Of a stretch of 64,000 nucleotides of DNA, positions 6,323 to 25,195 are shown piece by piece (the first letter of the stretch is position 1; every line of letters starts with the position of its first letter). The stretch is from Candidatus Omnitrophota bacterium. Lineage in GTDB: Bacteria > Omnitrophota > Gorgyraeia > Zapsychrales > Zapsychraceae. The DNA lies in the NCBI GenBank assembly GCA_050250375.1, contig JBFWOS010000002.1, positions 282,980 to 346,979 of the forward strand, given 5' to 3'. A program made the position numbers and the translations under genes. Under the pieces are notes generated by a model, which was given only the letters and a program-made list of their open reading frames with translations, was not told the origin of the DNA and searched no databases.

Positions 6323-7564
6323 ATGAGGTTATCTATGAATGTCCGTATCGCTGTTTGGAGTATATTAATTAGTAGTTTGATGTCAGTTTTAAGCGTGACA
6401 GACGTCTTTGCCCAGACATTTTATAGGGAAGAGAATATTCGCAGGGTCCTTCAAGGCTATCAGGATCTCAAAGGCATTCGTATTGGCCAGGCGGCCAGCT
6501 TAAAGGCCACTATTTCACAGGAAGGACTGTATGACGACAATATCTTTTTATCCGCAGAAGACAAGAAGCATGATTTTATCAGCATTACCAGTCCTCAATT
6601 TCTTCTGGATGTGCCGGTAGGAAAGGATGCCCGCCATCATCTGCAAGTGTTATATAAGGCGGATGCCGCGGCTTATTCAAATTATAAAAATCAGAATTAT
6701 GTTAACCAGGGCGTAGTGGCGTTGGCGGACATGTCCCTGCCATTCGGATATCTCAATGTGCAAAATGCTTTTCGGGATACGGTCGACAGGGCCTCAACCG
6801 AGTTTACAAATCAGGTGCGACGAAATGAAAATCTGTCCCGGATTATCTTTGGTGTCAAAAAGAACAAATTCACCTATGAAACCGGGTATATCCATTTTAT
6901 ATCCGATTATCGGGATAATGATCTCGAGGTTTTGAACCATCAGGAAGATATTTTTACGGGGACGGTCTATTACCAGATTTTCCCAAAGGCCAGAGCGCTT
7001 CTTGAATATAATCATGGTCTCATCAATTATTCCAACGACGAGACTCGTGACGGAGATTATGACCAGTTCCGTACCGGCGTTAAATTTGACCTCACTGGAA
7101 AGACCGACGGCATCGTCAAAGTGGGTTACCAGCAACGGGAGTATGATTCCGCGGGACGAAGCGGTTTTAACGGATTTGTCACCGAAGCCGGGATCAACAC
7201 TGTATTCTCCGAGCGCACATCGTTATCACTTAATTATGACAGCACAGCCGTGGAATCGATTGATTCGACGAATAATTATTACAATATGAATTTAATTGAA
7301 GCCAATTTGACCCAGAATCTCAGAGGTAATTTTGATCTGGTGCTGACGTCCCGGTTTGAACGGCGTGATTACCCCGAAGCAGATCCAACGGCCAATGTTA
7401 AACGCCGTGACACCGTTCTGACCGAGGGAATTACACTTAAGTACAAGATCAATAAATTAGGGGAGATAAATCTGGGCTATCGATATACGAATGACAAGTC
7501 CAATATCGACAGCAATGAATACAAGGATAATTTAATCTCCCTGCGGTTTGATTTATTAATTTAA
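6323..7564 (+). CDS. outer-membrane beta-barrel protein, putative EPS-associated porin
   Basis: Signal peptide. Alternating amphipathic strands. C-terminal aromatic residue (…LRFDLLI). First gene of the EPS locus. Confidence 0.45.
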   Translation: MRLSMNVRIAVWSILISSLMSVLSVTDVFAQTFYREENIRRVLQGYQDLKGIRIGQAASLKATISQEGLYDDNIFLSAEDKKHDFISITSPQFLLDVPVGKDARHHLQVLYKADAAAYSNYKNQNYVNQGVVALADMSLPFGYLNVQNAFRDTVDRASTEFTNQVRRNENLSRIIFGVKKNKFTYETGYIHFISDYRDNDLEVLNHQEDIFTGTVYYQIFPKARALLEYNHGLINYSNDETRDGDYDQFRTGVKFDLTGKTDGIVKVGYQQREYDSAGRSGFNGFVTEAGINTVFSERTSLSLNYDSTAVESIDSTNNYYNMNLIEANLTQNLRGNFDLVLTSRFERRDYPEADPTANVKRRDTVLTEGITLKYKINKLGEINLGYRYTNDKSNIDSNEYKDNLISLRFDLLI

Positions 7565-7584
7565 GATAAGAGGTTTTAAAAAAT

Positions 7585-8214
7585 ATGAAAAAATGGATAC
7601 CGGTAGTATTAATTTCAGTGTTTTTGATGACATGGTCCGCAGACGGATTTGCGGCTTCCCCGGCAACACAGCCGACGAGTGAAGTTTTGGAAAAGAAATC
7701 TGCGGAAACGTCCGAATATCTGATCGGGTCCGAAAATGTCCTTCTGATTGATGTCTATTACGGCAAAGGGGAAAAAATATCCCAGAGAGTGCGGGTCTCA
7801 TCTCGTGGATTTATCACATTCCCATTGGTCGGGGAAATCGAAATTGGAGGCCTGACGGTGTCAGGTCTACAGGAAAAATTGACGGATATTCTTGGCAAAG
7901 ATTACCTGGTTAATCCCCAGGTTACGATTTTTATTGAAGAGTACAGTACCGTTTCGATCATGGGCGAGGTCAAAAAACCCGGGGTTTACCCGATCAAAGG
8001 GCGGCTTTCGGTCATAGAATTAATTTCACTGGCCGAAGGGTTTACATCCATCGCGGCGCCTAATAAGGTTAAAGTGATCCGTACCAACTCCAACGGAATC
8101 AGGGAAGAGTTGCAGGTTCGTATTAACGATATTATTAACAAAGAAAGCGGAGATAAGGATAACGTAGTCTTACGCGCGGGGGATATGGTTATTGTCCCGG
8201 AAAGTATGTTTTAG
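7585..8214 (+). CDS. polysaccharide export protein, Wza-like (Poly_export + SLBB)
   Basis: Signal peptide. Poly_export/SLBB-like region (PLVGEIEIGGLTVSGLQEKL, GEVKKPGVYPI). Confidence 0.8.
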   Translation: MKKWIPVVLISVFLMTWSADGFAASPATQPTSEVLEKKSAETSEYLIGSENVLLIDVYYGKGEKISQRVRVSSRGFITFPLVGEIEIGGLTVSGLQEKLTDILGKDYLVNPQVTIFIEEYSTVSIMGEVKKPGVYPIKGRLSVIELISLAEGFTSIAAPNKVKVIRTNSNGIREELQVRINDIINKESGDKDNVVLRAGDMVIVPESMF

Positions 8215-8224
8215 GGAGTTTCAT

Positions 8225-9931
8225 ATGGCCGATGGGAATATGGATAGAACACGAGAGGGCAAAGAAATCATAGAGATTGATTTGCAGGATATTATTCGAA
8301 AATTGTTTAAACATAGGGCGACGCTTATTAATACGGTTTTTATTGCAGCGGCTGCTTCGCTGGTTTATTCATTCACGACCATACCGGTTTACCGGGCGAC
8401 CAGCCGGGTCATGGTGGAGCGCCGGGCTCCTAAAATTGTCAAGGTCGATGACATGATTATTCCAGATCAAACCGACCAAACCAATTTTTTCAACTCACAG
8501 GTAGAAATTCTAAAGAGTCAGACTCTGGCTAATTTGGTCTTCCAGGAACTCGGCACCTACGAACCGGCCTCCAGGCGCGGCAAATCGGCGGATCAGCTTA
8601 AACCGATTACTAAATCCGAACGGCTTGAGGCCTTGCTTGAACAGATCATCATTTTTCCGGTCCGGATGACTCAGATCATTGATGTCAGCGCGGATGATCC
8701 TGATCCCCAACTAGCTGCCCGAATCGCGAATACGTGGACACAAGCATATATCTTTTTATCATCGGTTGACCAGCTCATCCAACGGCGCAGTGAACTGGAG
8801 ATAGATATGTACCAGCGTTCAAAATATCTTAAAGGAAAGAATCCGGTCATTTTGGGGTTGCAGAGTGAAATTGAGGCGATCGACGAAAAAATTCAAAGTG
8901 AACGCTCGCGGCTGACTTTGGTGAGTAATCAGTCCCCGGAGAATACGACCTGGGGCGGTAATACATCCAATGTTAAAATTATTGACATGGCAACCGTTCC
9001 CGTAAATCCGGTTCGGCCGCGCAAGGCGTTCAATCTGGCCTTGGCAATTGTTTTTGGGATATTTTTCGGCGGAGCGCTGGCCTTTTTGTTTGAATCGCTG
9101 GACCATACGATCAAAACCGCGTTTGATCTGGAACAGACCATCAAAATGTCCTGTCTGGTCGCAATTCCGGCGTTTAATAACAAAAATGCACCCAAAGATT
9201 TGATCCCTGAATTCATATCCGAGAAAATCCGCAGTTCACTGGTCGCAGAATCTTTTAGGCATTTGCGGACTAACATCGTCTACAGTAATCCAGATTTTCC
9301 ATCGCGGACCATTATGGTTACCAGTTCTTCCACGCTGGAAGGCAAGACCACGACGGCCATTAACCTGGCGTGCGTGTTCGCGCAGGCCGGGGAGCGTACC
9401 ATTGTGATTGACACCGATATGCGCAGTCCGCGTCTTCAGGCGGTATTCAGGACAGAACGCATCGAAGGGTTGTCCGATGTCCTGATTTCAGAGAAGGGAG
9501 ATGTCCGGCCATTTATTCAGAAAACCGATATTCCAAACCTGGATATCATAACTTGCGGAAAGATTCCGCCGAATCCTTCGGAACTTCTGGTGTCCAAGAA
9601 AATGGAGGATGTCATTACTAAGCTGTCAAAGGATTATGATCGGGTGATTCTAGATACACCGCCGGTATTAGCAGTCACGGACGCCGTGATCCTTTCGACA
9701 AAAGTACAGGCGATTATTTTTGTTGCCCGTTCCGGGTTCACCCATCGTCAAGCTGTGCTTAGCAGCATCAAGACTCTCAAGTCCGTTAACGCGCGGATTT
9801 TAGCCGTTGTGTTAAACATGGTGGATTTTTATGGCCATGGAGATCACTATGGTTATTCACTTTACGACCCGAATACCCGTGCGAAGATAGCAGCAAAAAC
9901 TAAAGCCAAAGGTTTTTTCAAAAACTTTTGA
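8225..9931 (+). CDS. polysaccharide co-polymerase (Wzz domain) fused to a BY-family tyrosine kinase, Wzc/EpsB-like
   Basis: Two TM helices flank a periplasmic coiled-coil region. Walker A SSSTLEGKTTTAINLA. Walker B VILDTPPV. Tyr-rich C terminus (DFYGHGDHYGYSLYD). ATG at 8225 with an RBS. Confidence 0.8.
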   Translation: MADGNMDRTREGKEIIEIDLQDIIRKLFKHRATLINTVFIAAAASLVYSFTTIPVYRATSRVMVERRAPKIVKVDDMIIPDQTDQTNFFNSQVEILKSQTLANLVFQELGTYEPASRRGKSADQLKPITKSERLEALLEQIIIFPVRMTQIIDVSADDPDPQLAARIANTWTQAYIFLSSVDQLIQRRSELEIDMYQRSKYLKGKNPVILGLQSEIEAIDEKIQSERSRLTLVSNQSPENTTWGGNTSNVKIIDMATVPVNPVRPRKAFNLALAIVFGIFFGGALAFLFESLDHTIKTAFDLEQTIKMSCLVAIPAFNNKNAPKDLIPEFISEKIRSSLVAESFRHLRTNIVYSNPDFPSRTIMVTSSSTLEGKTTTAINLACVFAQAGERTIVIDTDMRSPRLQAVFRTERIEGLSDVLISEKGDVRPFIQKTDIPNLDIITCGKIPPNPSELLVSKKMEDVITKLSKDYDRVILDTPPVLAVTDAVILSTKVQAIIFVARSGFTHRQAVLSSIKTLKSVNARILAVVLNMVDFYGHGDHYGYSLYDPNTRAKIAAKTKAKGFFKNF

Positions 9932-10006
9932 GTGTCGGATGACGAGAAAATATTTAGAACGTAGCGGTGCCACTGCCGGCAAGTGATTTATTTTGTGAGT
10001 TATTAA

Positions 10007-11320
10007 ATGAACATGGATTATGTTAAAATCGAAAATTTATTAACGCCGACAAAAATCAATTTTTTGTGGATGATGCTGGCCAATGGCATTTATGCGTTGT
10101 GTCAATGGGGGATGCTGATTGTACTGGCCAAGCTCGGGAGCCCCGAAATTGTTGGGCAGTTTGCCCTGGGGATAGCCATCACGGCACCGGTGATCATGAT
10201 AGCGAACATGCAGCTTCGCGGCGTTCAGGCCACGGATGCCCGCAAGGAATATTTTCTCGCCGATTATATGGCCGTGAGAATTGCCTCAACGGCCGTTGCT
10301 CTTCTGGTAATCCTCCTGATCCTTTATCTTGGTCATTTTAGCCGGGAGGTTTTTTTTGTCACGGTTATTCTCACCCTGGCCAAAGCCGTAGAATCGCTCA
10401 GTGATGTCTTTTACGGATTTTTCCAACAGCATGAAAAAATGGGTTTTCTGGCCGTATCCATGATTATAAAAGGGATATCCTCCGTCGGTGTTTTAGCCTT
10501 TATTTTTTATATATCTTCCAGCTTACGGTGGGCCCTGACCGGCTTGTTCTGTGTCTGGCTAGCGGTGCTCGTATGTTATGATGTCAGCCGCGTTAGACCT
10601 CTGGTCAAAATGACGGAAGGAGCGACTCACGGCGATTTGCTCCGCTCCATCGTTACAGCATTTTCTAATCGCCGGAAATTTCTCGCGCGAATGATTCTCA
10701 TGGCTTTCCCATTGGGGATTGTGATGGGGATTATATCCCTAAATTCCAATATTCCCCGTTACGCGATTGAAAAATTTCTCGGAGCGAGGGACCTCGGCAT
10801 TTTTGCGGCATTGGTATACACGACGGTTGCGGTCAACATGTTTATTCTGGCCCTGGGACAGGCGGTGGCGCCAAAAATGTCCCGGTGTTTTGCCACGAGG
10901 GATATTCCGGGTTTCAAATCTATTCTGAATAAAATGATCGTGATCAACCTTGTGATTGGCCTTGCCGGTGTTTTAGTGATTTCTGCCGGTGGAAAATGGA
11001 TCTTGTCATTATTGTACACAGCTGAATACGCTGATTATTCAAATTTGTTTATCCTCCTAATGGTGTGTGCGACCGTCATGGGGATTGCATCAGCCTACGG
11101 GTTTGCGATGACCGCCGCGCGGCAGTTTAAACTGCAAGTGCCGCTGTTTTTAGTTGTACTTTTTTCCACAGCACTCATTTCTTACATATTTATTCCGCAG
11201 TTCAAGCTGAACGGCGCTGCGTTAGCCCTTCTTGTGTCCGCTGGTATACAGATTGGCGGAAGTGCGCTGATCGTTCAGCGTGAAATTAACCGAGCAGTCC
11301 GGGAAGGGATGTCCCTATGA
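10007..11320 (+). CDS. oligosaccharide flippase Wzx (MOP superfamily)
   Basis: About 12 TM helices. N-terminal pattern typical of polysaccharide biosynthesis protein family flippases. Confidence 0.65.
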   Translation: MNMDYVKIENLLTPTKINFLWMMLANGIYALCQWGMLIVLAKLGSPEIVGQFALGIAITAPVIMIANMQLRGVQATDARKEYFLADYMAVRIASTAVALLVILLILYLGHFSREVFFVTVILTLAKAVESLSDVFYGFFQQHEKMGFLAVSMIIKGISSVGVLAFIFYISSSLRWALTGLFCVWLAVLVCYDVSRVRPLVKMTEGATHGDLLRSIVTAFSNRRKFLARMILMAFPLGIVMGIISLNSNIPRYAIEKFLGARDLGIFAALVYTTVAVNMFILALGQAVAPKMSRCFATRDIPGFKSILNKMIVINLVIGLAGVLVISAGGKWILSLLYTAEYADYSNLFILLMVCATVMGIASAYGFAMTAARQFKLQVPLFLVVLFSTALISYIFIPQFKLNGAALALLVSAGIQIGGSALIVQREINRAVREGMSL

Positions 11321-12468
11321 CTATTCCTGATCAGAAAAAAACTATTCGCGTTTTACATGTCGTCGGCGGCATGGATACCGGAGGAGTCGAAACCTGGCTG
11401 ATGCATGTCATGCGCCGGATTGATAGAAGCCTTTACCAATTTGATTTTTTAACACATACCAACAAGCCTTGTTTCTATGATGAAGAAATCAGATCTCTTG
11501 GCGGACAGATTATTCCCTGCCCGCATGCCGCGCGTCCGTGGGAATACGCGAGGTGTTTCCATCGCATCATCAAGGAGCATGGGCCGTATGATGCCGTCCA
11601 CAGCCATGTCCACCATTTTAGCGGGTTTCCGATGATGCTGGCCAAACAGGCCGGTGTGCCGGTCCGTATTTCCCACAGCCATAATGATACTTCCTTAATT
11701 GAAAGCCGGGCCGGATTCGGACGAAAGTGTTATTTGCACACGGCCCTATGGCTGATCCGCCGTTATTCCACCAATGGGCTGGCTTGCAGCGGTGTGGCCG
11801 CCGCAAATTTATTTGGTAAGGACTGGTCCCGTGATTCCAGCCGCCGGATTTTATATTACGGGATCAATCTGGATTCCTTCATGGCGACGGTCCATCGGGC
11901 GGATGTGCGCAGCGAACTGGGTGTGCCGTCAGATGCTTTTGTGGTCGGTCATGTCGGCCGGTTCGCGGAACAGAAAAATCATGATTTTTTGTTGGACGTT
12001 TTTGCCGACTTTTTAAAAAACGAGAAGAACGCCCGTTTACTTCTGGTGGGAAAGGGAATATTAGAAGCAGAGGTTGCGCAAAAAGCTGAACGCCTGGATC
12101 TGATGGACAAGATCATTTTTGCCGGTGTGCGGCCGGATGTTCCGCGTCTTATGTTAGGGGCTATGGATGTATTTGTGTTCCCTTCGCGTTACGAAGGGCT
12201 CGGGCTTGTCATCGTTGAAGCCCAAGCCGCCGGTCTGCCGGTTGTCATGTCTGATGCCATTCCAGAGGAGGCCATAGTTATCCGACCCTTGGTCAAAATG
12301 TTGACTCTGAAGGATGATGTTTCCATCTGGGTTCAAGCCATTGCGGATAGTAGGAGTCTTAATCGGCCGGTCAACGAGTCATACCAAAGCGTTCGGGATT
12401 CAAAGTTTAATGTCATACGGGGTGTGGAAGAATTGTGCGGCATATATGCCGGAAAAACTCAACCATGA
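11317..12468 (+). CDS. glycosyltransferase family 4
   Basis: GT4 E-X7-E region EGLGLVIVEAQAAGLPVVMSD. Confidence 0.8.
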   Translation: MTIPDQKKTIRVLHVVGGMDTGGVETWLMHVMRRIDRSLYQFDFLTHTNKPCFYDEEIRSLGGQIIPCPHAARPWEYARCFHRIIKEHGPYDAVHSHVHHFSGFPMMLAKQAGVPVRISHSHNDTSLIESRAGFGRKCYLHTALWLIRRYSTNGLACSGVAAANLFGKDWSRDSSRRILYYGINLDSFMATVHRADVRSELGVPSDAFVVGHVGRFAEQKNHDFLLDVFADFLKNEKNARLLLVGKGILEAEVAQKAERLDLMDKIIFAGVRPDVPRLMLGAMDVFVFPSRYEGLGLVIVEAQAAGLPVVMSDAIPEEAIVIRPLVKMLTLKDDVSIWVQAIADSRSLNRPVNESYQSVRDSKFNVIRGVEELCGIYAGKTQP

Positions 12469-12511
12469 AAGGGCAGCTGTTTTATACGGATTTAAACGTT
12501 GGACATAACTA

Positions 12512-13678
12512 ATGAACAAATACGATTATACAAATTACCTGTTTTTATATTTCCCTTACCATGTCCTGTTTGCATTTCTGGTCGGCTTGTCTCTTTTTTT
12601 TGATTTTCACAAGACCAGCCGCTCATTGCAGCAAGGGCTGTTTTTTCTATTGATCATCCTGCTGTCGGTTTTCTGCGGCACCCGGGTGGGGTGGAGTGAT
12701 CAGGACGGTTATATGTGGATTTTTGATATGGTACCGCCACTACCCGGGTTTTTGACCGGGCAAACGTATGTGCCGTTTCGGATTGAGTATCTTTATCTTC
12801 TTCTTAATTCTTTTGTGAAATGTTTTTCGCAAAACCCGATGGTTCTTTTCTTGACGGTCGCCAGTGGTGTGGTGACGATGAACCTGTGGGCTTATAGAAA
12901 ATATTCGCCGTATTTTTTTTTAACGGTGCTGGCCTATTATTCCAATTATTATTTTGTAGGAACAATGACCGCCATGAGGCAGGGGATCGCCACAGGCATC
13001 GTTTTATGCGCGGTCTCCCTTTTGACAGGTAAAAAAGATTTAGCGTTTATTGTCTTTGTTATGGTCGCGGCTATGTTTCATTTCTCGGCGATCTTTGCAT
13101 TATTCGGATATGTAGTTTACCGTCTGAATTTTTCTTCGCGTGTTTTGTACTGTTTGGTACTGGGTTCATTGGCGCTTGGTATTTTTTCTCCGGTTTCGCA
13201 CTGGCTGTTCAGCCATTTTCTGTCTTTCAGCAACTTGAATCCACAGATTGAGACGGGATTAAGTTATCTGGAAAATGAGTCCCAAGGTTTTGCTCTCGGT
13301 GTACTGCGGCCGACGTCACTGAAGCAATTGATGATCTGTTTGCTGGCGATCAGATACCGGGAGACTTTAGGTAAACAGATGAAATATTTTGAGGTCTTAT
13401 TCCTTTTTTATTGCGGGGCTACCATCTGGAGGTTTCTCTTTAACGATGTGGCTGTTTTAGCGGCGCGCGTCGCCGGATTGCTCAGTTTGGGAGAACCTGT
13501 ACTCATCGTTTCATTTTTGCTGTTGTTTAAGCACGATCAGCGCAGGTGGATTGCGCTGGGTATTATTTTACTGGCGGCCGGTTCGCTGTATTTAAATTTT
13601 ATCACCTTTAATTATCCTCCTTATGTTTCGGCTTTATTCGGAGGGATGTACTGGAAAGAAGGATTTTTTGGAATTTAA
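12512..13678 (+). CDS. EpsG/Wzy-like polysaccharide polymerase (integral membrane protein)
   Basis: About 10 TM helices. EpsG-like R-x-G-x-D-x-x-Y motif (GTRVGWSDQDGY). Sits between GT genes. Confidence 0.45.
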   Translation: MNKYDYTNYLFLYFPYHVLFAFLVGLSLFFDFHKTSRSLQQGLFFLLIILLSVFCGTRVGWSDQDGYMWIFDMVPPLPGFLTGQTYVPFRIEYLYLLLNSFVKCFSQNPMVLFLTVASGVVTMNLWAYRKYSPYFFLTVLAYYSNYYFVGTMTAMRQGIATGIVLCAVSLLTGKKDLAFIVFVMVAAMFHFSAIFALFGYVVYRLNFSSRVLYCLVLGSLALGIFSPVSHWLFSHFLSFSNLNPQIETGLSYLENESQGFALGVLRPTSLKQLMICLLAIRYRETLGKQMKYFEVLFLFYCGATIWRFLFNDVAVLAARVAGLLSLGEPVLIVSFLLLFKHDQRRWIALGIILLAAGSLYLNFITFNYPPYVSALFGGMYWKEGFFGI

Positions 13679-13696
13679 CGGAGGTATCCCGAAATT

Positions 13697-16845: not shown

Positions 16846-18011
16846 AAATATTAGTTTTGGCGGGATATGCTGATTCATTAATCAAATTTCGTGGTCCCTT
16901 GCTGGAAACGATGGTCAGGGGAGGACATAAGGTGATCGCCTGTGCGTCCGGACATCCCGTTGAGATTGTAGAACGGCTGGAGAAAATGGGAATTATTTAT
17001 CGGGAAATTCCTCTTCAACGGACAGGAATGAATCCAGTCCGGGACATATACACCGTATTTTTTTTATATCGATTGTTGAAGAGAGAACGCCCGGATATTG
17101 TTTTTGCTTACACGATAAAACCGGTGGTTTATGGTTCTCTGGCCGCACGCTGGGCCGGGATACGGAAATGTTATGCGATGGTAACCGGGTTGGGAAATAC
17201 ATTTGATCATTCGGCCGGAAAAAAAAGATGGTTGCATAAACTGGTTTGTTTTTTATACCGTTTCAGTCTCAAAAAGAATAAAACAGTTTTTTTCCAGAAC
17301 CCGGATGACCGGAATTTTTTTCTGGCATTGAATCTGATAGGGAAAAATACAACGGCAGCGCTGGTGAACGGGTCCGGGCTTGACTTAGAACATTATACCG
17401 TTGCACCAGTGGCTGAAAATCCGGTGGTGTTTTTACTGATCGCCCGGATCATCCATGAAAAGGGGATTGTCCAATACTTTGAAGCGGCCCAACAGTTAAA
17501 AAAACGGTACAGCAACATGATTTTTCGATTGCTCGGAAGGTTTGACACCAATCCTTCTGCCATCAGTCAGGAAACTGTTATGGAATGGCACAAACAGGGA
17601 ATCATTGAGTTTTTGGGATCCGCAGATGACGTCCGGCCGCAGATTGCCGCTGCCAGTGTTTATGTCTTGCCATCCTATTACGGAGAAGGGACTCCCCGAA
17701 CGGTCCTGGAGGCGATGGCGATGGGCCGGCCGGTGATCACAACCGATGCCCCGGGATGTCGGGAGACGATCAGAAAGATAAACAATTCTCCGTGGGATAT
17801 GGAAGAAAAAAAGGGAAGATTTATGATCGGAGCCAATGGTATTTTGGTTCCGGTTAAAGATGTTGAAGCCTTGGCCGCGGCCATGCAGTTTTTTATGGAT
17901 CATCCGCAGGAAATCAGGAGGATGGGACAGGAAAGCCGCCGCTACGCGCAGGAACGTTATGATGTTATTAAGGTCAACGACGTCTTGATGAAAGGCATGG
18001 AGCTACGGTAA
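16842..18011 (+). CDS. glycosyltransferase family 4
   Basis: GEGTPRTVLEAMAMGRPVITTDAPGCRE. Confidence 0.75.
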   Translation: MKILVLAGYADSLIKFRGPLLETMVRGGHKVIACASGHPVEIVERLEKMGIIYREIPLQRTGMNPVRDIYTVFFLYRLLKRERPDIVFAYTIKPVVYGSLAARWAGIRKCYAMVTGLGNTFDHSAGKKRWLHKLVCFLYRFSLKKNKTVFFQNPDDRNFFLALNLIGKNTTAALVNGSGLDLEHYTVAPVAENPVVFLLIARIIHEKGIVQYFEAAQQLKKRYSNMIFRLLGRFDTNPSAISQETVMEWHKQGIIEFLGSADDVRPQIAAASVYVLPSYYGEGTPRTVLEAMAMGRPVITTDAPGCRETIRKINNSPWDMEEKKGRFMIGANGILVPVKDVEALAAAMQFFMDHPQEIRRMGQESRRYAQERYDVIKVNDVLMKGMELR

Positions 18012-18382
18012 TGGCTGAACTGATTTTTAAGCGCAGACAATTTGATGCGGCAACCGCACAAAAATTGCCCTATATGAACGAACAGTTCGAGCAATACCGG
18101 TATCTTCAGCAACTTATATCATTGATTGAAGCCAAAGAAAACAGTCTGGCCGCGTTAAGAGAATTGGCTAGAATTTTAAAGAAGAACGGAGTCGCTTATT
18201 TATTATTCTTGTTCCGGGCGTCACGCGAAAAAACGCCGGTTGGTTTCTTATTAAAATGGTATTTAAAGATAGTCCGGACATTTGTCCATCAAATGGAAGA
18301 AGGTTACTGGGTGAGTCCGAATAATTTAAGGGATAAAACATTCACAGAGTTTCTTTATATTAAATACGGAAAGAATAATTAA
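18011..18382 (+). CDS. hypothetical protein
   Basis: 123-aa ORF translationally coupled between two EPS genes. No recognisable motif. Confidence 0.4.
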   Translation: MAELIFKRRQFDAATAQKLPYMNEQFEQYRYLQQLISLIEAKENSLAALRELARILKKNGVAYLLFLFRASREKTPVGFLLKWYLKIVRTFVHQMEEGYWVSPNNLRDKTFTEFLYIKYGKNN

Positions 18383-18384
18383 GT

Positions 18385-20211
18385 ATGTTGTCTAAAATAA
18401 TATGGTTGAAGCATCATTGTCCGGGTATATGGGCTGTCATTGAGAAAATAAATAATGGATTCCTCTTTCTGTTGTGGGGTAAAAGGATCACGGCTGTCCG
18501 TGAAAAGCTGACCCAGTGGCAAGCTTTAGCGGATGGACGTATCCGTTTATTAAATAGACATGATACCGATAGTCTGGTTGAATTTCTAAAACAGGTCACC
18601 AAAGAAGAATTGACTTTTTTCAAGCCGCATGGATTTGACAAGGCGAGTATTGAAACTGTCTTGAATAGCTTAGGGTACATGCCGATTGGTTTTTTTATTG
18701 AAGATAAGTTGGCCGGTTATTTTATGATGCGCCTATTTTGTTCGAAAAAGGCCTTTATTGGCCGGTATTTGTCCGGCGATATGAGACGAAAGGGGTTGGG
18801 AGGGCGCATGGCGCAGGTCTTGTACGGTATGGGAGAAGATTTGAATTTTGAGGTCTTTTCGACGATCAGCCGGGATAATAATTCTTCGCTGCGGTCACAT
18901 GAAAACATGGGAATGATGACCATTGTTAAAGAGTTGCCCAATAATTATCTGCTGGTAAAGTTCACGAATGGGAATGGTCAGCCATCGCAATCTTTTAAGG
19001 GAGTGACCGGCAAGAAAACAGTGGATGTAGTCCTCAGTTATGGCTGGAACCGTGTCGCCTATAATATGCTTCGGGCCCTGGCCTTAAATAACCTGCGAGT
19101 AGCTGTCGGAGACAGTTCCCGCTTCGCCATGGCCAAGGCATCGCGTTATTGCGCGGGTTCATTTCGATATCGATCGTTTTACCGGAACCCTCAGGATTTC
19201 ATCAGTGACCTGGAGAGGGCATTTAGCCGGTTTAAGCCACAGGTATATTTGCCATCTCACGAAGAGACCTTTATCGTCGCGCGTTATATTGACCGGTTGC
19301 GAAAGACCGGAGTTAAGATTCCCATTGCGGATTTTAATACCATCAAAACTCTTCACCGCAAAGATCTTTTGATGCCGGAAACTCATAAATTAGGAATACC
19401 AACTCCGAAGACGTTTAAGTTAGAACATCTTGACCAACTAAAACATTTTTGGGCCGAAGCGGGGAAAGATAACTGTGTAGTGGTCAAGTTATTAAATACA
19501 AACAGTTCAAAGGGAGTATTTTATGCCCGTTCGCTAGAGGAATTGAAATCAATCTGCCAATGTGTTATCAAAGGACAGACTCGGGAGAATTATCCGATTA
19601 TTCAGGAATATGTGGAAGGGGCCGGATACGGGGTATCCATGCTTTTCAATCAGGGTGTGTTAAAGGCAAAATTCACGCATAAACGTTTAAGGGAAAAAAT
19701 TTATACGGGGGGAACAAGTACTGTGCGCATAAGTACGGAAAATATTGAATTGGAAAATTATGCTGAGCGATTGTTGAGCAGTATGAATTGGCATGGAGTC
19801 GCTATGGTGGAATTTAAGTACAATGAAACCGAAAAACGAGGGTGGCTTATAGAAGTTAATCCCCGTTACTGGGGATCATTAGCGTTGGCGATCCAGTCGG
19901 GAGTAAATTTTCCGCTCCTTGCGTATAAAATGGCGCAGAATGGGGATGTGGCTCCAGTCAAAGATTATAAGAAAGGTGTGGTTACCCGCTGGATCCTCGG
20001 TGATGTCTTGGCCGCCCTGGATTGTATTAAATATAAAAAGAAAATGTCTGATATGAAGAAATTTACGACAAAAAGGATTAAGTACGATGATTTTTATTTT
20101 GACGATCCGTTACCCTTCTTTGCCCAGGGAGGGTATTATGCCGCTAAATTCCTTAAGGGGTTTAAGATGAATCCCCTGAAAAACGCGATTTTGGATATTG
20201 ACCGGATATGA
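18385..20211 (+). CDS. bifunctional GNAT acetyltransferase / ATP-grasp ligase fusion protein
   Basis: N-terminal GNAT motif (RRKGLGGRMAQVLYG). C-terminal ATP-grasp region with IIQEYVEGAGYGVSMLF and VAMVEFKY...WLIEVNPRYWGSL. Confidence 0.65.
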   Translation: MLSKIIWLKHHCPGIWAVIEKINNGFLFLLWGKRITAVREKLTQWQALADGRIRLLNRHDTDSLVEFLKQVTKEELTFFKPHGFDKASIETVLNSLGYMPIGFFIEDKLAGYFMMRLFCSKKAFIGRYLSGDMRRKGLGGRMAQVLYGMGEDLNFEVFSTISRDNNSSLRSHENMGMMTIVKELPNNYLLVKFTNGNGQPSQSFKGVTGKKTVDVVLSYGWNRVAYNMLRALALNNLRVAVGDSSRFAMAKASRYCAGSFRYRSFYRNPQDFISDLERAFSRFKPQVYLPSHEETFIVARYIDRLRKTGVKIPIADFNTIKTLHRKDLLMPETHKLGIPTPKTFKLEHLDQLKHFWAEAGKDNCVVVKLLNTNSSKGVFYARSLEELKSICQCVIKGQTRENYPIIQEYVEGAGYGVSMLFNQGVLKAKFTHKRLREKIYTGGTSTVRISTENIELENYAERLLSSMNWHGVAMVEFKYNETEKRGWLIEVNPRYWGSLALAIQSGVNFPLLAYKMAQNGDVAPVKDYKKGVVTRWILGDVLAALDCIKYKKKMSDMKKFTTKRIKYDDFYFDDPLPFFAQGGYYAAKFLKGFKMNPLKNAILDIDRI

Positions 20212-20795
20212 AAATTGTATTATTTGATTTTGACCGGACACTGACGAATCGGGACACCTTGCGTCCGGTAGCGAAATATTTTTCCGGGGAAGACCGTAAA
20301 TATTTTTCCTTGGTGATTTTGTATTTTATCCTGGTGTTGTCCCGTTTTCGGATCATCAATGATAAGACGATGAAAGAATTTTTCTTAAGTGTTTTCATAA
20401 AAGGAAAAGAACTTTCCTGGGTAAATACAGCGGTAAGAAAATATTTCGGAAATAATCTGGAATCTTTAATTAACCGTCCGGTGTTTGAAGCCTTGGAGAA
20501 TTATCGAAAAAACAGTGCCAAGATTTATATTGTATCAGCCAATTTTGATTTTCTTTTAGAGCCACTCATTGAATTATGGGGGATTACCGGAGTTATATGC
20601 ACGCAGACGGAAAAGTTAAACGGCGTTTTTACCGGAAAAATAACAGGTGAAACATGCAAAGGGAAAGAAAAAGCGGCAAGACTAAGGACGATGTTTGCCC
20701 CGCAGGATTTCTCCGGTATGACGGCCTATGGTGATGAAGGCGACCGCGAAATGCTGGATATGGTTGGAGAGGCGAAGTTGATTAAGAATAGTTAA
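20208..20795 (+). CDS. HAD-IB superfamily hydrolase
   Basis: Motif I FDFDRTLT. C-terminal GDEGDREML. Confidence 0.65.
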   Translation: MKIVLFDFDRTLTNRDTLRPVAKYFSGEDRKYFSLVILYFILVLSRFRIINDKTMKEFFLSVFIKGKELSWVNTAVRKYFGNNLESLINRPVFEALENYRKNSAKIYIVSANFDFLLEPLIELWGITGVICTQTEKLNGVFTGKITGETCKGKEKAARLRTMFAPQDFSGMTAYGDEGDREMLDMVGEAKLIKNS

Positions 20796-20820
20796 ATATT
20801 AATATAAGTGAGGGTATTTT

Positions 20821-21480
20821 TTGAGATTTAGAAAATTCATTATTTTTTTTGCTGTTTGTGTTTTTATCGCAGGCATTTTGATTGCTTCAAAGGATTATTA
20901 TCTACCTTTGTTCGGATCATTTTTGGTTATAAAGGACGACCTAAAACCGGCGGATGCGGTCATTGTCCTGGGAGGCGAAGAGGAACGGATATATTACGCG
21001 GTGAAACTGTATAAACAGAAACTCGTGAAATATATCGTGATTACCGGTGGAGGCGTGACCGGCCGTGAAATCAGCATCGCCGGCTGGTTAAAAATTAGGG
21101 CGCTCAAATCGGGTGTCCCTGAAAAAAATATTTTACTTGAAACAAAGGCTGAGCACACGTACCAGCATCCAATTTTTGTTAAGCCGATTTTAGTGGAACA
21201 TGGGTTTACATCGGCGATCGTGGTGAGTTCTCCCTATCACATGCGCCGATCGGTGATGCTGTTTAACCGGGCATTCCGAATGAGCGGAATCAACCTGACT
21301 TACATTCCTGTTGCCGACAGCTGGTTTAAGTCTGATCGCTGGTGGAAAAGTTCGGATGGCCGGAGAATTGTATTTTCAGAATACATAAAGCTCGCGGTGG
21401 ACATGTGGGGCGTCAAGGTGAGCGATCGGGCCTGTGCCTTGTTAAAGGAGAAAAAGTGGTCCATACTTGTTACCCGTTGA
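20821..21480 (+). CDS. DUF218 (SanA/YdcF/ElyC family) protein
   Basis: ADAVIVLGGEE...IVITGG and SSPYHMRRS patterns. TTG start with an N-terminal membrane anchor. Confidence 0.55.
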   Translation: MRFRKFIIFFAVCVFIAGILIASKDYYLPLFGSFLVIKDDLKPADAVIVLGGEEERIYYAVKLYKQKLVKYIVITGGGVTGREISIAGWLKIRALKSGVPEKNILLETKAEHTYQHPIFVKPILVEHGFTSAIVVSSPYHMRRSVMLFNRAFRMSGINLTYIPVADSWFKSDRWWKSSDGRRIVFSEYIKLAVDMWGVKVSDRACALLKEKKWSILVTR

Positions 21481-21507
21481 AGAATCTTAACGGAAAGACT
21501 TAACCTT

Positions 21508-22161
21508 ATGAAAAGACTTTTTGATTTAATTTTCTCATTTTTTGGGCTGGTAGTTCTCGCTCCCTTACTGGCTGTTGTCGCGGTAATCATAAAACTGACA
21601 TCGGAAGGGCCGATCCTTTTTTCGCAAAAACGCGTCGGACTTTATGAGAAGATATTCCTGATCTATAAGTTCAGGACCATGGTGGATAAAGCCGACACGA
21701 AAGGGACTTCAGTTACGACCGGGAATGACCCGCGCATTACGCCCATCGGGCGAATATTACGAAAGACAAAACTGGATGAATTACCCCAGTTATTTAACGT
21801 TATGAGAGGGGATATGAGTTTCATCGGCCCTCGGCCGGATGTGCCGGAGATTACGGCGAAATATACACCGCAGATGAAGAAAATTTTTTCCGTTCGTCCG
21901 GGCATAACCAGTGTAGCGACTCTGCATTTCCGGCAGGAAGAAGAAATCCTGGCGAAAATTAAGGATCCGGATCGGTTTTATGATGAGAGAGTTGTGCCTT
22001 TAAAAGTGGCTTTGGCCATGGAGCATGTCGAACGCAATTCATTTTTATTTGATTTATTGATTCTTATGCAGACTGTGTGGGTCCTGCTGCCTTTGGGGAA
22101 AATTTGGCCGGTCAAGGAATTGCCGGCGGTTAAACAATTTAGAGAGGAATATTCGTTATGA
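21508..22161 (+). CDS. small bacterial sugar transferase, PglC/WecP-like initiating phosphoglycosyltransferase
   Basis: Re-entrant N-terminal helix. Bac_transf motifs KFRTM and DELPQLFNVMRGDMSFIGPRP. Confidence 0.85.
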   Translation: MKRLFDLIFSFFGLVVLAPLLAVVAVIIKLTSEGPILFSQKRVGLYEKIFLIYKFRTMVDKADTKGTSVTTGNDPRITPIGRILRKTKLDELPQLFNVMRGDMSFIGPRPDVPEITAKYTPQMKKIFSVRPGITSVATLHFRQEEEILAKIKDPDRFYDERVVPLKVALAMEHVERNSFLFDLLILMQTVWVLLPLGKIWPVKELPAVKQFREEYSL

Positions 22162-23339
22162 AGAAGCCGACGTTCGCGCCTTGGCCGTCGTTTGACGCCG
22201 AGATTATTGACGCAGTTAAAAGCGTATTAGTATCCGGGAAAGTAAGCCAATGGACCGGAACAAATGTTTACGCGTTTGAAAAAGAATACGCGCAATATTT
22301 GGGAGTGAAACATGCGATTGCGATGGCCAATGGTACGGTTACGCTGGATGCCGCCTTAAAAGTTTTAGGCATTGGTCCGGGTGACGAGGTAGTTGTATCG
22401 AGCCGTTCCTTTGTTGCGTCGGCCAGTTGTGTCGCATATGCCGGGGCTCTGCCGGTCTTTGCTGATATTGACGGCTCTAGTGGAAATATGACGAAGGAAA
22501 CGATCGAGGCCGTTCTCACAAAGAAAACAAAGGCGGTCATCGTTGTTCATTTAGCCGGATGGCCTTGTGATATGGATCCGATCGTGCAATTGTGTCAGTC
22601 TCGAAAATTATGTCTGATCGAAGATTGTGCACAGGCGCATGGAGCCCTATATAAGGGAAGGCCGGTCGGGACATTCGGAGATTTTGCCTCTTTTTCTTTT
22701 TGCCAGGATAAGATATTTACGACCGGCGGGGAGGGAGGGCTTTTGGTTACCAATGATCCGAGACGATGGAAAAAGGCCTGGAGTTTAAAGGATCATGGGC
22801 GCGACTATGATGTGGTCTTTAACCAGACGAGCGGAACGAGCTTCAAGTGGATGGTCAACAGCTTCGGGACAAATAACCGTATGACTGAGATCCAGGCGGC
22901 GATCGGGAGGATTATGTTGAAGCGGCTGGATGAAATGGTGGGTAAACGCCGCCAGCATGCAGTTTTTTTTGATGCTGCTTTTAAAAAAATGGAGGGGCTT
23001 GTGGTCCCGGTTGTGCCGTCTGAAATAAAACATTCTTATTACAAATATTATGTCTATGTTGATCCGAAAAAATTAAAAGCCGGTGAATCCAGAGATACGA
23101 TCCTGCAAGAATTATCTGCCTTGGGTGTTCCCTGCGGGAGCGGGGCATGTCCGGAAATTTATCGGGAAAAGGCGTTCCGCGACCAGCGTAAAAAAATGAG
23201 TTTGTCGGCGCAGAAACATCTTTCGGTGAGTAAGAAATTGGGAGAGACGTCGATTATGTTGCAGGTGCATCCGACATTATCATCAGATAGTATCCATTAT
23301 GTGATTGATTCCATGAAAAGTGTATTTAAGAAGGATTAG
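22158..23339 (+). CDS. DegT/DnrJ/EryC1/StrS family PLP-dependent sugar aminotransferase
   Basis: Fold-type I aminotransferase pattern. Probable PLP-binding Lys in SFCQDK. Confidence 0.8.
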   Translation: MKKPTFAPWPSFDAEIIDAVKSVLVSGKVSQWTGTNVYAFEKEYAQYLGVKHAIAMANGTVTLDAALKVLGIGPGDEVVVSSRSFVASASCVAYAGALPVFADIDGSSGNMTKETIEAVLTKKTKAVIVVHLAGWPCDMDPIVQLCQSRKLCLIEDCAQAHGALYKGRPVGTFGDFASFSFCQDKIFTTGGEGGLLVTNDPRRWKKAWSLKDHGRDYDVVFNQTSGTSFKWMVNSFGTNNRMTEIQAAIGRIMLKRLDEMVGKRRQHAVFFDAAFKKMEGLVVPVVPSEIKHSYYKYYVYVDPKKLKAGESRDTILQELSALGVPCGSGACPEIYREKAFRDQRKKMSLSAQKHLSVSKKLGETSIMLQVHPTLSSDSIHYVIDSMKSVFKKD

Positions 23340-23341
23340 CT

Positions 23342-25195
23342 ATGAGACCACTACGACAATTAAAATTTTTACTGAAATACCGGCGGTTAGTGACTATCTT
23401 CGTCCACGCGATCTTGTTTATAATGGCCTACGTTTTTGCGTATTTGTTAAGGTTTGAATTCGATATTCCGGAATACCAAATGGTCAATTTTTACGAGGCG
23501 TTACCGATGGTGATAGCGATTCAATTGATGATTTTTGGATTTTTGGGATTGTTTCATGAACTCTGGCATTATATATCCATCGAAGATGTGGTACAACTCA
23601 TTAAAGCGAACGTGACCGCGTCAATTCTCTTTTTAGCGCTGACCAAACTGCTGGGCTGGAATTCCTTCCCGCGCTCCATTATTATTCTGGATTTTATCCT
23701 TGCTTTGGGGTTTTCCTCAGGTTTACGGCTGTCATTAAAGATGTTTAAAGATTATTTGCAGAGAAATAAATACTCTTCCGTCCGTGCCCACCGTATTCTT
23801 ATCGTTGGGGCAGGCGAAGCCGGGGTCATGCTGCTCAAAGAGATCACTCGCAATAACCCGGGTATGGGGGGCGAGGTCGTCGGGTTTATCGATGACGATC
23901 CGTTGAAGCAAAAATCAAACATCCAGGGAGTAAGAATTATGGGGACCCGCTGTGAAATTCCCCAGGTCGTCACCAAACACAAAGTCGATGAGATCATCCT
24001 GGCCATTCCATCGGCGGATGGTGGGACCGTACGAGGAATTCTCGCTCATTGTGAAAAGACTAAAACCAAGATCCAGGTTATTCCGGGGATCAAACAGATT
24101 TTGAGCGGGGAGAAGCAATTGAAGCCCCGTGATGTCCATCCGGATGACCTTCTCGGTCGAGAAACCGTCACAATCAATACCGAAGAAGTACGCCAATATA
24201 TTAAGAACCGTGTGGTCTTAGTCACGGGGGCTGGCGGTTCGATTGGGTCTGAGATCTGCCGGCAGGTCGCGTCTTTTGTCCCAAAAGAATTAATCCTTCT
24301 TGATCACTATGAAAACTCATTGTATTTTCTTTTGCTGGAACTCAAAAATACATATCCACATCTTTTAACAACCCCGATCATCGGTGATGTCAGGGATGTT
24401 GGACTTTTGAAACAGGTTTTTAGCCGGGCCAGACCGCAGGTGGTTTTTCACGCCGCCGCGCATAAACATGTGCCCCTTATGGAAATTAATCCGGCTGCTG
24501 CGGTAAAAAATAATATCTTCGGCACACGGAACATGATTTATGCCAGCAATCACTACGGGGTGGAACGTTTTGTATTCATATCAACGGATAAAGCGGTTAA
24601 TCCGATCAATACCATGGGAATGTCGAAGCGCGTCGCGGAGATGATCCTCCAAGCCCGGGCGCAAAAAAGTAAGACCAAATTTATGGCGGTACGGTTCGGT
24701 AATGTCCTGGGTTCTGCAGGTTCGGTGGTGCCACTCTTTAAGCAGCAGATCGAGAAAGGCGGTCCGGTTACGTTGACTGACCCTGCAGTAAAACGCTATT
24801 TTATGAGCATTAAAGAGGCCTGTATGCTCGTCCTGCAGGCAGGGGCATTGGGAAAAGGCGGGGAAATTTTTATCCTCGATATGGGTGAGCAGATCAAAGT
24901 CTTGGACCTTGCGCATAACCTGATTACATTATCAGGTCTGGTCCCGGAAAAAGATATTGAGATTCAATATGTCGGCCTTCGCCCCGGTGAAAAACTTGAA
25001 GAGGAGCTACTGTTGGACAAAGAAAAAGACGCGATGACGCAACATAACAAAATCTTTGTTAACTATTGCGGAGTGACATTTAACCGCCAGGTCCTTGGGC
25101 GCAATCTTCGCCGGTTGCATCGTAAGACTCAGGAAATTAATGAAGAAGAAATTAACCGGTTGTTGATGGAAATTATAGCAGCTGGGAATATATGA
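23342..25195 (+). CDS. membrane-anchored UDP-GlcNAc 4,6-dehydratase (PglF/CapD/WbpM family)
   Basis: Four N-terminal TM helices. Two Rossmann segments (VGAGEAG; VLVTGAGGSIGSE). 617 aa. Confidence 0.8.
   Translation: MRPLRQLKFLLKYRRLVTIFVHAILFIMAYVFAYLLRFEFDIPEYQMVNFYEALPMVIAIQLMIFGFLGLFHELWHYISIEDVVQLIKANVTASILFLALTKLLGWNSFPRSIIILDFILALGFSSGLRLSLKMFKDYLQRNKYSSVRAHRILIVGAGEAGVMLLKEITRNNPGMGGEVVGFIDDDPLKQKSNIQGVRIMGTRCEIPQVVTKHKVDEIILAIPSADGGTVRGILAHCEKTKTKIQVIPGIKQILSGEKQLKPRDVHPDDLLGRETVTINTEEVRQYIKNRVVLVTGAGGSIGSEICRQVASFVPKELILLDHYENSLYFLLLELKNTYPHLLTTPIIGDVRDVGLLKQVFSRARPQVVFHAAAHKHVPLMEINPAAAVKNNIFGTRNMIYASNHYGVERFVFISTDKAVNPINTMGMSKRVAEMILQARAQKSKTKFMAVRFGNVLGSAGSVVPLFKQQIEKGGPVTLTDPAVKRYFMSIKEACMLVLQAGALGKGGEIFILDMGEQIKVLDLAHNLITLSGLVPEKDIEIQYVGLRPGEKLEEELLLDKEKDAMTQHNKIFVNYCGVTFNRQVLGRNLRRLHRKTQEINEEEINRLLMEIIAAGNI

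Follow-up and report, generated by a model that had tools for sequence, protein, structure and literature searches.

A predicted Wzx/Wzy-dependent capsule or exopolysaccharide locus with a bacillosamine-type primer in an Omnitrophota bacterium

The Omnitrophota are uncultured, and we know of no description of their surface polysaccharides. Here, we analyzed a 64,000-nucleotide stretch of DNA from a Candidatus Omnitrophota bacterium (GenBank assembly GCA_050250375.1, contig JBFWOS010000002.1, positions 282,980 to 346,979), which we refer to as the window. It contains a block of ~19 kb, at window positions 6323-25195, with genes resembling those for the synthesis and export of a surface polysaccharide. 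When open reading frames (ORFs) of at least 100 amino acids (aa) were counted, the block proved to be an unbroken run of 16 ORFs on the + strand, 15 of which contain Pfam families above the gathering score. The original prediction for this DNA had described seventeen co-directional genes of an exopolysaccharide (EPS) locus of the PEP-CTERM type. The shared direction of the genes was correct and their number was not. The inventory given at that time was otherwise largely accurate, with one further miscount: there are three glycosyltransferases of family GT4 (11317-12468, 13697-14896, and 16842-18011) and not four. The genes of the block are the following (scores in bits):

6323-7564, + strand: outer-membrane beta-barrel protein (BBP2_2, distantly EpsL-like); PF10082, 87.8
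7585-8214, + strand: short periplasmic outer-membrane polysaccharide export (OPX) protein of the D1D2 type, 209 aa; Poly_export, 66, plus one SLBB domain
8192-9931, + strand: polysaccharide co-polymerase of class 2a (PCP-2a) fused to a bacterial tyrosine kinase (BY-kinase), Wzc-like; Wzz, GNVR, and AAA_31 domains
10007-11320, + strand: Wzx flippase; PF01943 (Polysacc_synt), 60.9 over residues 18-294
11317-12468, + strand: GT4 glycosyltransferase a; Glycos_transf_1 and Glyco_transf_4
12512-13678, + strand: Wzy-type polymerase of the EpsG family; PF14897, 132.4 over residues 43-371
13697-14896, + strand: GT4 glycosyltransferase b; Glyco_trans_1_4, 78
14896-16845, + strand: AsnB-type glutamine amidotransferase, EPS-associated subtype; Asn_synthase, 415, plus GATase
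16842-18011, + strand: GT4 glycosyltransferase c; Glyco_trans_1_4, 89.6
18011-18382, + strand: putative truncated remnant of an S-adenosylmethionine (SAM) methyltransferase, 123 aa; no Pfam match at threshold
18385-20211, + strand: GNAT::ATP-grasp fusion; GNAT at about residues 45-195, ATP-grasp at about residues 212-608
20208-20795, + strand: HAD-IB phosphatase, translationally coupled to the ATP-grasp gene; PF12710, 80.6
20821-21480, + strand: DUF218 (ElyC/YdcF-like) protein; PF02698, 90.6
21508-22161, + strand: small monotopic phosphoglycosyl transferase (PGT), PglC-like, 217 aa; Bac_transf, 205
22158-23339, + strand: predicted UDP-4-keto-6-deoxy-GlcNAc C4 aminotransferase of the DegT family; PF01041, 333.6
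23342-25195, + strand: PglF-like UDP-GlcNAc 4,6-dehydratase with an extra N-terminal region; Polysacc_synt_2, 394.6, plus CoA_binding_3

Neighboring genes of the block overlap by 1-23 nt or are separated by 2-75 nt, and 7 of the 15 junctions show overlaps of 1-4 nt or gaps of 2 nt. For the PCP/BY-kinase gene, gene calling on the source contig placed the start at a site equivalent to window position 8240. The same genes were called on the 1,006,043-bp NCBI contig JBFXCX010000001.1 of a Candidatus Omnitrophota metagenome-assembled genome (GCA_050181705.1) and in an independent Logan assembly. Furthermore, right or central portions of the block recur at 52-85% protein identity in three related contigs, L085, L087, and L089. 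We conclude from the identical calls and from this recurrence that the block is not an ORF artefact, and the gene spacing suggests one operon-like unit. In the comparison of L085, L087, and L089, the DUF218, PGT, DegT, and PglF genes formed a conserved priming block. The middle part was variable in its glycosyltransferases, Wzy type, and AsnB, ATP-grasp/HAD, methyltransferase, deacetylase, and acyltransferase genes. Mosaics of this serotype-like kind are usual for surface-polysaccharide loci.

On its left side, the locus is preceded by a gap of 309 nt. On its right side it ends at 25195 and is followed by a gene for a D-2-hydroxyacid dehydrogenase (25226-26221), in place of which the syntenic contig L087 has an unrelated ABC substrate-binding gene. 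Further downstream are a small GIY-YIG ORF (~26316-26606) and a tRNA-Ser(GCT) gene (26857-26946), and a partial tRNA was found at window positions 1-53. The variable polysaccharide locus may sit at a tRNA-linked recombination hotspot. An Rfam scan yielded only tRNAs and no riboswitch.

The core of a Wzx/Wzy pathway is present in this single locus, as the PGT, the Wzx flippase, and the Wzy polymerase were all detected above the Pfam gathering scores. Wzx shares 63% identity with Wzx of L085, and the EpsG-type Wzy shares 66% identity with its counterpart in L089. The PCP/BY-kinase passed the cut-off of TIGR01007 (187.9 versus 108 bits), carries the Walker A motif GKTT, and ends in the tail YGHGDHYGYSLY with a Tyr cluster; a PCP-2a co-polymerase with a BY-kinase and C-terminal tyrosines is thus encoded next to an OPX export protein. 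With Wzx, Wzy, PCP/BY-kinase, OPX protein, and outer-membrane barrel all in place, the earlier description of the product as a Wzx/Wzy-dependent exported polysaccharide was well founded.

The OPX protein has a Sec signal peptide and a PES motif, and of its 209 residues only five follow the SLBB domain, which ends at residue 204. This leaves no space for an outer-membrane helix like that of Wza. Its score with the EpsY model NF041843 was 73 versus a cut-off of 320 bits. In the composite D1D2 OPX/beta-barrel class, the OPX protein has at most 280 aa and no C-terminal amphipathic helix, and a barrel gene is located within five genes (PMC9601211). The same survey, on the Myxococcus xanthus EpsY/EpsX type, counted 453 couples of a short OPX protein and a beta-barrel and found such coupling in 10 phyla. 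In our locus, the gene for the 209-aa OPX protein has a BBP2_2 barrel gene directly upstream, an agreement with this class that is known here from the genes alone. We propose that the barrel protein is the outer-membrane-spanning half of a composite translocon.

The last three genes of the block point to the first sugar of the repeat unit. The PglF-like dehydratase has its closest solved relatives in PglF of Campylobacter jejuni (5bju-5bjy, ~287 bits). The DegT enzyme is closest to the PDB entry 7l7x (413 bits, E 9e-123), which is Pcryo_0638, an enzyme that makes UDP-2-acetamido-4-amino-2,4,6-trideoxy-D-glucose (PMC8040287). For the small PGT, the closest solved relative is the N,N'-diacetylbacillosaminyl-1-phosphate transferase PglC (8e37, 117 bits). 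By homology, the locus therefore encodes the dehydratase, the C4 aminotransferase, and the sugar-1-phosphate transferase that are characteristic of N,N'-diacetylbacillosamine (diNAcBac). A UDP-4-amino-4,6-dideoxy-HexNAc had already been put forward as the first sugar implied by the PglF-, DegT-, and PglC-like proteins, and these homologies support it well. The repeat unit probably starts with a bacillosamine-type amino sugar. The DUF218 gene accompanies the PGT, DegT, and PglF genes in L085, L087, and L089, and a DegT and a PglF-like gene in L092. A Pfam scan of the ORFs revealed no PglD-type Hexapep/left-handed beta-helix acetyltransferase in the locus, a gap that the original prediction had not pointed out.

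Assignment of the N-terminal half of the fusion protein (18385-20211) to the GNAT superfamily is based on several lines of evidence. A profile built from 15 sequences matched 27 PDB entries at E values up to 1 (best E 3e-4), and every informatively named match was an N-acetyltransferase or a GNAT-family protein. The AlphaFold model of this part, at moderate pLDDT, has the GNAT topology beta-alpha-alpha-beta3-alpha-beta-alpha-beta2, and the sequence contains RRKGLGG as the acyl-CoA-binding motif. Members of the subfamily begin with a helix and share an invariant PHGFD motif. Standalone homologues of ~195 aa exist, one of which carries PF00583. In L089 (63-66% identity), the gene order is methyltransferase, GNAT, DUF218, PGT, DegT, and PglF; in L090/L091 and L095 it is GNAT, PGT, and DegT. 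L085 lacks the GNAT domain and encodes a hexapeptide-repeat protein, for which the Hexapep match was flagged as faint. Because the locus lacks PglD and this GNAT family sits beside small PGT and DegT genes elsewhere, we favor the view that the GNAT domain is an N-acyltransferase for the 4-amino group of the DegT-made sugar and substitutes for PglD.

Fusions of this kind seem to be rare. In a homologue search covering 5.8 billion clustered proteins, there were three full-length GNAT::ATP-grasp fusions among the matches listed, and nearly all the others were ATP-grasp proteins of ~400 aa without the N-terminal domain. The C-terminal half has an ATP-grasp fold according to PF15632 (ATPgrasp_Ter, 47 bits) and PF02655 (ATP-grasp_3, 39 bits), with an AlphaFold pLDDT above 90. 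A Pfam scan of the fusion gave no match to the TupA-like domain (PF14305), and a search of its sequence against the PDB returned nothing significant. The HAD-IB protein passed TIGR01490 (116 versus 98 bits), and its weaker NCBIfam matches were phosphoserine and histidinol-phosphate phosphatases.

Relatives of the ATP-grasp half were compared across 80 genomic loci, the ten closest being L005-L014 (at least 42% tblastn identity). An HAD-IB gene was located directly downstream in 8 of the 8 close loci that could be evaluated, i.e., those in which the contig continues, and also in L085 and L087. The closest loci belong to Planctomycetota, Gammaproteobacteria, Acidobacteriota, Ignavibacteria, and Bacteroidota, and their neighboring genes encode glycosyltransferases, methyltransferases, DegT proteins, or PGTs. 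PGT and/or DegT genes were near the ATP-grasp/HAD module in L005, L006, L011, L085, and L087. Among the more distant relatives, a PHP phosphoesterase gene was adjacent in 16 loci (13 of them at position +1), and a deacetylase with Polysacc_deac_1 and DUF3473 was present in 21 loci. We propose that, judging from conserved gene order, ATP-grasp and HAD-IB proteins form an uncharacterised ligase/phosphatase tailoring module.

Two precedents are relevant to the possible substrate of this module. In Neisseria PglB2, an ATP-grasp domain is reported to replace the acetyltransferase, giving a 4-glyceramido sugar (GATDH). In C. jejuni HS:2, the TupA-like ATP-grasp protein Cj1438C is reported to amidate glucuronate with a phosphorylated amine, after which the HAD phosphatase Cj1435 removes the phosphate. 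By analogy, the pair studied here might act on the amino sugar of the primer, as in the PglB2 pathway, which we suggest tentatively, or on a glycan carboxyl group in a Cj1438C/Cj1435-like manner, which we regard as somewhat less probable. Acylation of the amino sugar is slightly favored over amidation of a carboxylate because no UDP-sugar 6-dehydrogenase was found in the window, and genes for this enzyme are rare in the related loci (5 of 80, none among the closest ATP-grasp/HAD loci). For the same reasons, such a dehydrogenase was ruled out as a substrate supplier for AsnB or the ATP-grasp enzyme. The D-2-hydroxyacid dehydrogenase (25226-26221), considered as an acid supplier for the ATP-grasp enzyme, was dropped, as its gene is replaced in L087 and no homologue was found near other ATP-grasp loci. 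A literature search for ATP-grasp enzymes of O-antigen clusters with amide-linked amino acids retrieved nothing.

Variants of the ATP-grasp gene were also observed in other contexts. In L085 (10001-12142; P0006, related assembly GCA_964489065.1), the ATP-grasp is 73% identical, but its fusion partner is another N-terminal domain of ~310 aa, which had no Pfam match even at E values up to 1. Between its tailoring and priming genes, the same contig has an insertion of AbiE toxin-antitoxin and AAA genes. In metagenome-assembled genomes of Desulfobacterota (L021, L022, L027, L030, L041, L049, and L067; around position 10001), distant ATP-grasp relatives occur in repeated cassettes with the order 4HBT thioesterase, SDR, ATP-grasp, polysaccharide deacetylase (DUF3473), Sm_multidrug_ex, and radical-SAM/SPASM. 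A second cassette consists of B12-radical-SAM, ATP-grasp, a 266-aa protein without an assigned role, and a deacetylase. These cassettes look like distinct, undescribed pathways.

The AsnB-type protein of the locus passed TIGR01536 (477 versus 267 bits) and reached 70% of the cut-off of TIGR03108. In L089, a contig without the ATP-grasp and HAD genes, a 72%-identical gene occupies the equivalent position; conversely, L085 has ATP-grasp and HAD genes but no AsnB gene. Since the two occur separately, AsnB would be an independent tailoring step. The original prediction had compared AsnB to WbpS: the amidotransferase gene is indeed there, and the gene for a UDP-sugar 6-dehydrogenase that would form its substrate is missing from the window. 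The second AsnB paralog that it had noted is present at 60653-62521 and is a generic asparagine synthase (TIGR01536, 381 versus 267 bits; TIGR03108, 291 versus 817 bits). The predicted decoration of the polymer with amino acids or amides is plausible, although the emphasis would better fall on a 4-N-acylated bacillosamine-type primer, formed with a GNAT instead of PglD, and on the ATP-grasp/phosphatase pair.

The 123-aa ORF between GT4 c and the fusion gene shares 62% identity with residues 84-168 of a 252-aa SAM methyltransferase encoded at the same position in the syntenic L089. It has a weak C-terminal match to Methyltransf_11, aligns with residues 83-122 of a methyltransferase of L006, and lacks the SAM-binding N terminus. 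In two other assemblies (L002 and L087), it is kept at 121-123 aa. Either a pseudogene-like relic has been conserved, or the fragment has become a small protein with a new role; we prefer to regard it as a remnant.

Taken together, the gene content makes it quite probable that the locus directs the synthesis and export of a heteropolysaccharide, either capsule or EPS, by the Wzx/Wzy route with a bacillosamine-type primer. According to homology, the PglF-like dehydratase would convert UDP-GlcNAc to UDP-4-keto-6-deoxy-GlcNAc, from which the Pcryo_0638-like DegT enzyme would form UDP-2-acetamido-4-amino-2,4,6-trideoxy-glucose. The GNAT domain may then N-acylate the 4-amino group, yielding a diNAcBac-like or otherwise 4-N-acylated primer, and the PglC-like PGT would place the finished sugar phosphate on undecaprenyl phosphate. 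Extension would be carried out by the three GT4 enzymes, and the primer and three such enzymes would together give a repeat unit of about four sugars. Wzx would flip this unit and the EpsG-type Wzy polymerise it. Export would proceed through the Wzc-type PCP/BY-kinase, the D1D2 OPX protein, and the adjacent barrel as a composite OPX/beta-barrel translocon. As for tailoring, the ATP-grasp domain may join a phosphorylated small acid or amine by an amide bond, after which HAD-IB would take off the phosphate; AsnB may separately amidate a carboxylate.

Several observations weigh against parts of this model. The sigma-70 promoter and terminator scans of the block gave counts within shuffle expectation and were uninformative about the operon-like unit. 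On its own, the GNAT half (N-terminal 200 residues) remained below the Pfam threshold (PF00583, 18.8 versus 20.7 bits). Elsewhere, GNAT genes are translationally coupled to another ATP-grasp (ATPgrasp_ST; L092 and L094) and adjoin a CapK-like gene (L090) or an AMP-binding gene (L094). Given this proximity to other carboxylate-activating enzymes, the GNAT domain may transfer a group other than acetyl or act after a ligase. A Foldseek comparison of the fusion model with the PDB returned only generic ATP-grasp structures (biotin carboxylase/CPS-like, E 1e-19; 2pn1, TMt 0.80). No DegT gene was present within 10 kb in 5 of 8 closest ATP-grasp/HAD loci, so that the association of the module with an amine made by DegT is not a fixed one. 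Moreover, some of the PHP neighbors could be CpsB-like tyrosine phosphatases rather than ligase partners, and no carboxyl-forming enzyme for AsnB was found in the window.

The PEP-CTERM label of the original prediction was examined with nine TIGRFAM models of the exosortase system, judged against their curated cut-offs (score versus cut-off, in bits):

TIGR03007: 40 versus 279
TIGR03013: 165 versus 393
TIGR03014 (barrel protein, 6323-7564): 60 versus 275
TIGR03016 (barrel protein, 6323-7564): 48 versus 91
TIGR03018 (PCP/BY-kinase): 148 versus 231
TIGR03027 (OPX protein): 101 versus 180
TIGR03088 (GT4 a, top NCBIfam match): 96 versus 409
TIGR03108 (locus AsnB): 572 versus 817
TIGR02917 (TPR protein at 29966): 97 versus 312

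All nine stayed below the cut-off, the barrel protein falling far short with both of its models. No exosortase was found among the scanned window ORFs. Likewise, the genes called at contig positions 649,890-732,320 (~82 kb) had no recorded exosortase Pfam family, nor did those in the additional 10 kb on either side of the window. Nor was PrsK/PrsR, PrsT, or another exosortase-system marker seen across these ~82 kb. The PEP-CTERM protein that had been noted earlier is real (59668-60279, - strand; PF07589, 24.0 versus 20.7 bits; tail VPEP-TM-RRRK). It was the one such protein found in the window, encoded 34 kb from the locus, on the opposite strand, and among unrelated genes. The label is thus unsupported, and at the level of broad families only, the locus resembles exosortase-associated EPS loci. 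Since the PEP-CTERM protein is authentic, an exosortase is likely to be present somewhere in the genome. Within 55329-60279, a secretin gene (PilQ/GspD-like, under all equivalog cut-offs) is flanked by genes for proteins of 194 aa, with sub-threshold DUF matches only, and 692 aa, with no family match at threshold. The PEP-CTERM gene comes directly after these flanking genes, on the opposite strand.

Could the locus nevertheless be an XrtA/XrtB-associated PEP-CTERM EPS locus, with the exosortase encoded elsewhere and the polymer working with PEP-CTERM proteins? Exosortase-system models are the top named NCBIfam matches for several of its genes, namely, those for the OPX protein (TIGR03027), the outer-membrane protein (TIGR03014/TIGR03016), AsnB (TIGR03108), and two GT4 enzymes (TIGR03088). 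Furthermore, AsnB scores higher with TIGR03108 than with the generic TIGR01536, and the genuine PEP-CTERM protein makes an exosortase in the genome probable. However, most of the models were missed by a factor of 1.5 to 7, and a top hit within the exosortase TIGRFAM set is not proof that a locus belongs to a PEP-CTERM system. The second AsnB is a generic enzyme, the arrangement of a short OPX protein and a barrel is widespread beyond exosortase systems, and the distance and orientation of the PEP-CTERM gene and the lack of markers across the ~82 kb also speak against it, so that we consider this explanation unlikely. Still more improbable, to the point that we give it very little weight, is a lipopolysaccharide O-antigen or a glycan for protein glycosylation as the product. 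Bacillosamine-type priming is best known from protein glycosylation and some O-antigens, and among the relatives of the locus, glycosyltransferase, Wzy, and tailoring modules are exchanged in the manner of serotypes. Yet an O-antigen ligase or oligosaccharyltransferase is absent from the gene run, at the head of which stand the OPX, barrel, and BY-kinase PCP genes, hallmarks of capsule/EPS export. A PMT_2 membrane glycosyltransferase (39076-40626) lies 14 kb off and is unlinked to the locus. Because of this dedicated export machinery and the missing ligase and oligosaccharyltransferase, we prefer capsule or EPS.

The other question concerns the tailoring chemistry. The ATP-grasp/HAD pair could couple a phosphorylated amine, such as ethanolamine phosphate, serinol phosphate, or phosphoserine, to the carboxyl group of a uronic acid and then release the phosphate, and AsnB could form a primary uronamide like WbpS. 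The logic of an ATP-grasp ligase and a HAD phosphatase has been demonstrated experimentally in C. jejuni HS:2, and a phosphoesterase partner recurs in two unrelated folds. The weaker matches of HAD-IB to phosphatases acting on phosphoserine and histidinol phosphate would fit as well, and GT4 domains occur as fusion partners of certain ATP-grasp homologues (P0075 and P0085), recalling the glycosyltransferase fusion of Cj1438. Against this, the UDP-sugar 6-dehydrogenase expected for uronic acid formation is missing as described above, the fusion belongs to ATPgrasp_Ter/ATP-grasp_3 and not to the TupA-like proteins, and its partner is not a glycosyltransferase but a GNAT domain tied to amino-sugar genes. 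We therefore hold uronic acid amidation to be somewhat unlikely. Returning to acylation of the amino sugar, a broader proposal, which we put forward as speculative, is that two widely distributed tailoring devices meet in this locus. One would be the PHGFD-type GNAT replacing PglD; the other would be an ATPgrasp_Ter-like ligase obligatorily paired with a phosphoesterase (HAD-IB in close relatives, PHP in distant ones), which would add a phosphorylated acyl or amine group and afterwards strip off its phosphate. In bacteria as well as archaea, this pair would represent a convergent equivalent of Cj1438C/Cj1435. The GNAT::ATP-grasp fusion would be a Rosetta-stone link between the two. If so, both devices would act on the same 4-amino sugar and give, for example, an N-acetyl-aminoacyl or hydroxyacyl bacillosamine.

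Additional genes of the region were noted. Three co-directional genes directly upstream of the locus encode an HTTM protein (2259-3935), which is vitamin-K-dependent gamma-carboxylase-like and contains a VKGC lumenal domain, then a PIG-L de-N-acetylase (3943-5361), and lastly a GNAT protein (from 5286 or 5361 to 6014, + strand); a second HTTM protein is encoded at 34733-36373. As distant ATP-grasp relatives pair with deacetylases, the PIG-L deacetylase and the upstream GNAT could serve the polysaccharide locus as an N-acyl exchange step. An MBOAT acyltransferase (DltB/AlgI-like; 37852-38847, - strand) is encoded beside proteins of 135 aa and 321 aa, the latter with weak GDSL/DUF1574 matches. 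Beyond the window end are a further two MBOAT genes (L003:13049-13969 and 19232-21750), and ALGX follows one of these. With these genes, the region contains a number of O-acylation modules of the type known from alginate or teichoic acid. A 695-aa ORF (48638-50725) is a triple fusion of HemC, TP_methylase (uroporphyrinogen-III methylase), and HemD, which catalyze consecutive tetrapyrrole steps. Directly after the second AsnB gene, in the 62530-63494 region, are a gene with a colicin-E5-like tRNase domain and a 100-aa ORF, possibly for an immunity protein. Together with a YD-shell (TEN_YD-shell) protein further downstream on the contig (L003:16841-18039), this suggests a polymorphic toxin cassette.

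For the phylum, the gene content means that at least this Omnitrophota lineage encodes a full Gram-negative-style capsule/EPS pathway with Wzx/Wzy, BY-kinase, and composite OPX/beta-barrel translocon. The locus yields a concrete prediction of the primer sugar. The ATP-grasp/phosphatase pair and the PGT/DegT-associated GNAT family are candidates for in vitro study, and could be useful for glycoengineering of N-acylated bacillosamine derivatives.

In comparison with known systems, the locus shares with the XrtA/XrtB exosortase EPS loci of Haft's PEP-CTERM paradigm the outer-membrane protein, short OPX protein, chain-length/BY-kinase protein, GT4 enzymes, and AsnB-like protein in similar order, and a PEP-CTERM protein in the genome. 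It differs from them in that all curated cut-offs were missed and neither an exosortase nor a regulator was seen nearby. AsnB-type amidotransferases of the WbpS/WbtH type belong to O-antigen loci. Such an enzyme is likewise found among glycosyltransferase genes here, but a UDP-HexNAc/UDP-Glc 6-dehydrogenase was found neither in the locus nor in the window.

In their pathway context, Neisseria PglB2 and the fusion protein are both ATP-grasp enzymes encoded in bacillosamine-type pathways without the usual acetyltransferase. However, the ATP-grasp domain of our locus is fused to a GNAT domain instead of a PGT and is coupled to HAD-IB. Cj1438C/Cj1435 resembles the pair in combining an ATP-grasp ligase with a HAD phosphatase in a surface-polysaccharide locus. 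In contrast to that system, a glucuronate-forming gene was not found here, and as the ATP-grasp families differ (TupA-like versus ATPgrasp_Ter/ATP-grasp_3), the likeness is one of logic and not of family.

Like M. xanthus EpsY/EpsX and Vibrio cholerae VpsN/VpsM (PMC9601211), the locus has a short OPX gene adjoining an outer-membrane barrel gene in a Wzx/Wzy context; it differs in that the barrel is of the BBP2_2 family and the EpsY equivalog model was missed. With the diNAcBac pathways of C. jejuni (PglF/PglE/PglD/PglC) and Psychrobacter cryohalolentis (Pcryo_0612/0638/0637), it has in common the dehydratase, the C4 aminotransferase, and the small PGT, each with its best solved relative there. 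It differs in the lack of the left-handed beta-helix acetyltransferase PglD/Pcryo_0637, for which the GNAT domain with the invariant PHGFD is a candidate replacement. Moreover, the predicted product enters a Wzx/Wzy polymer with OPX export and not an oligosaccharyltransferase pathway. The locus is thus a genuine, well-delimited, but conventional Wzx/Wzy capsule/EPS locus, a further example of a known system in a poorly studied phylum.

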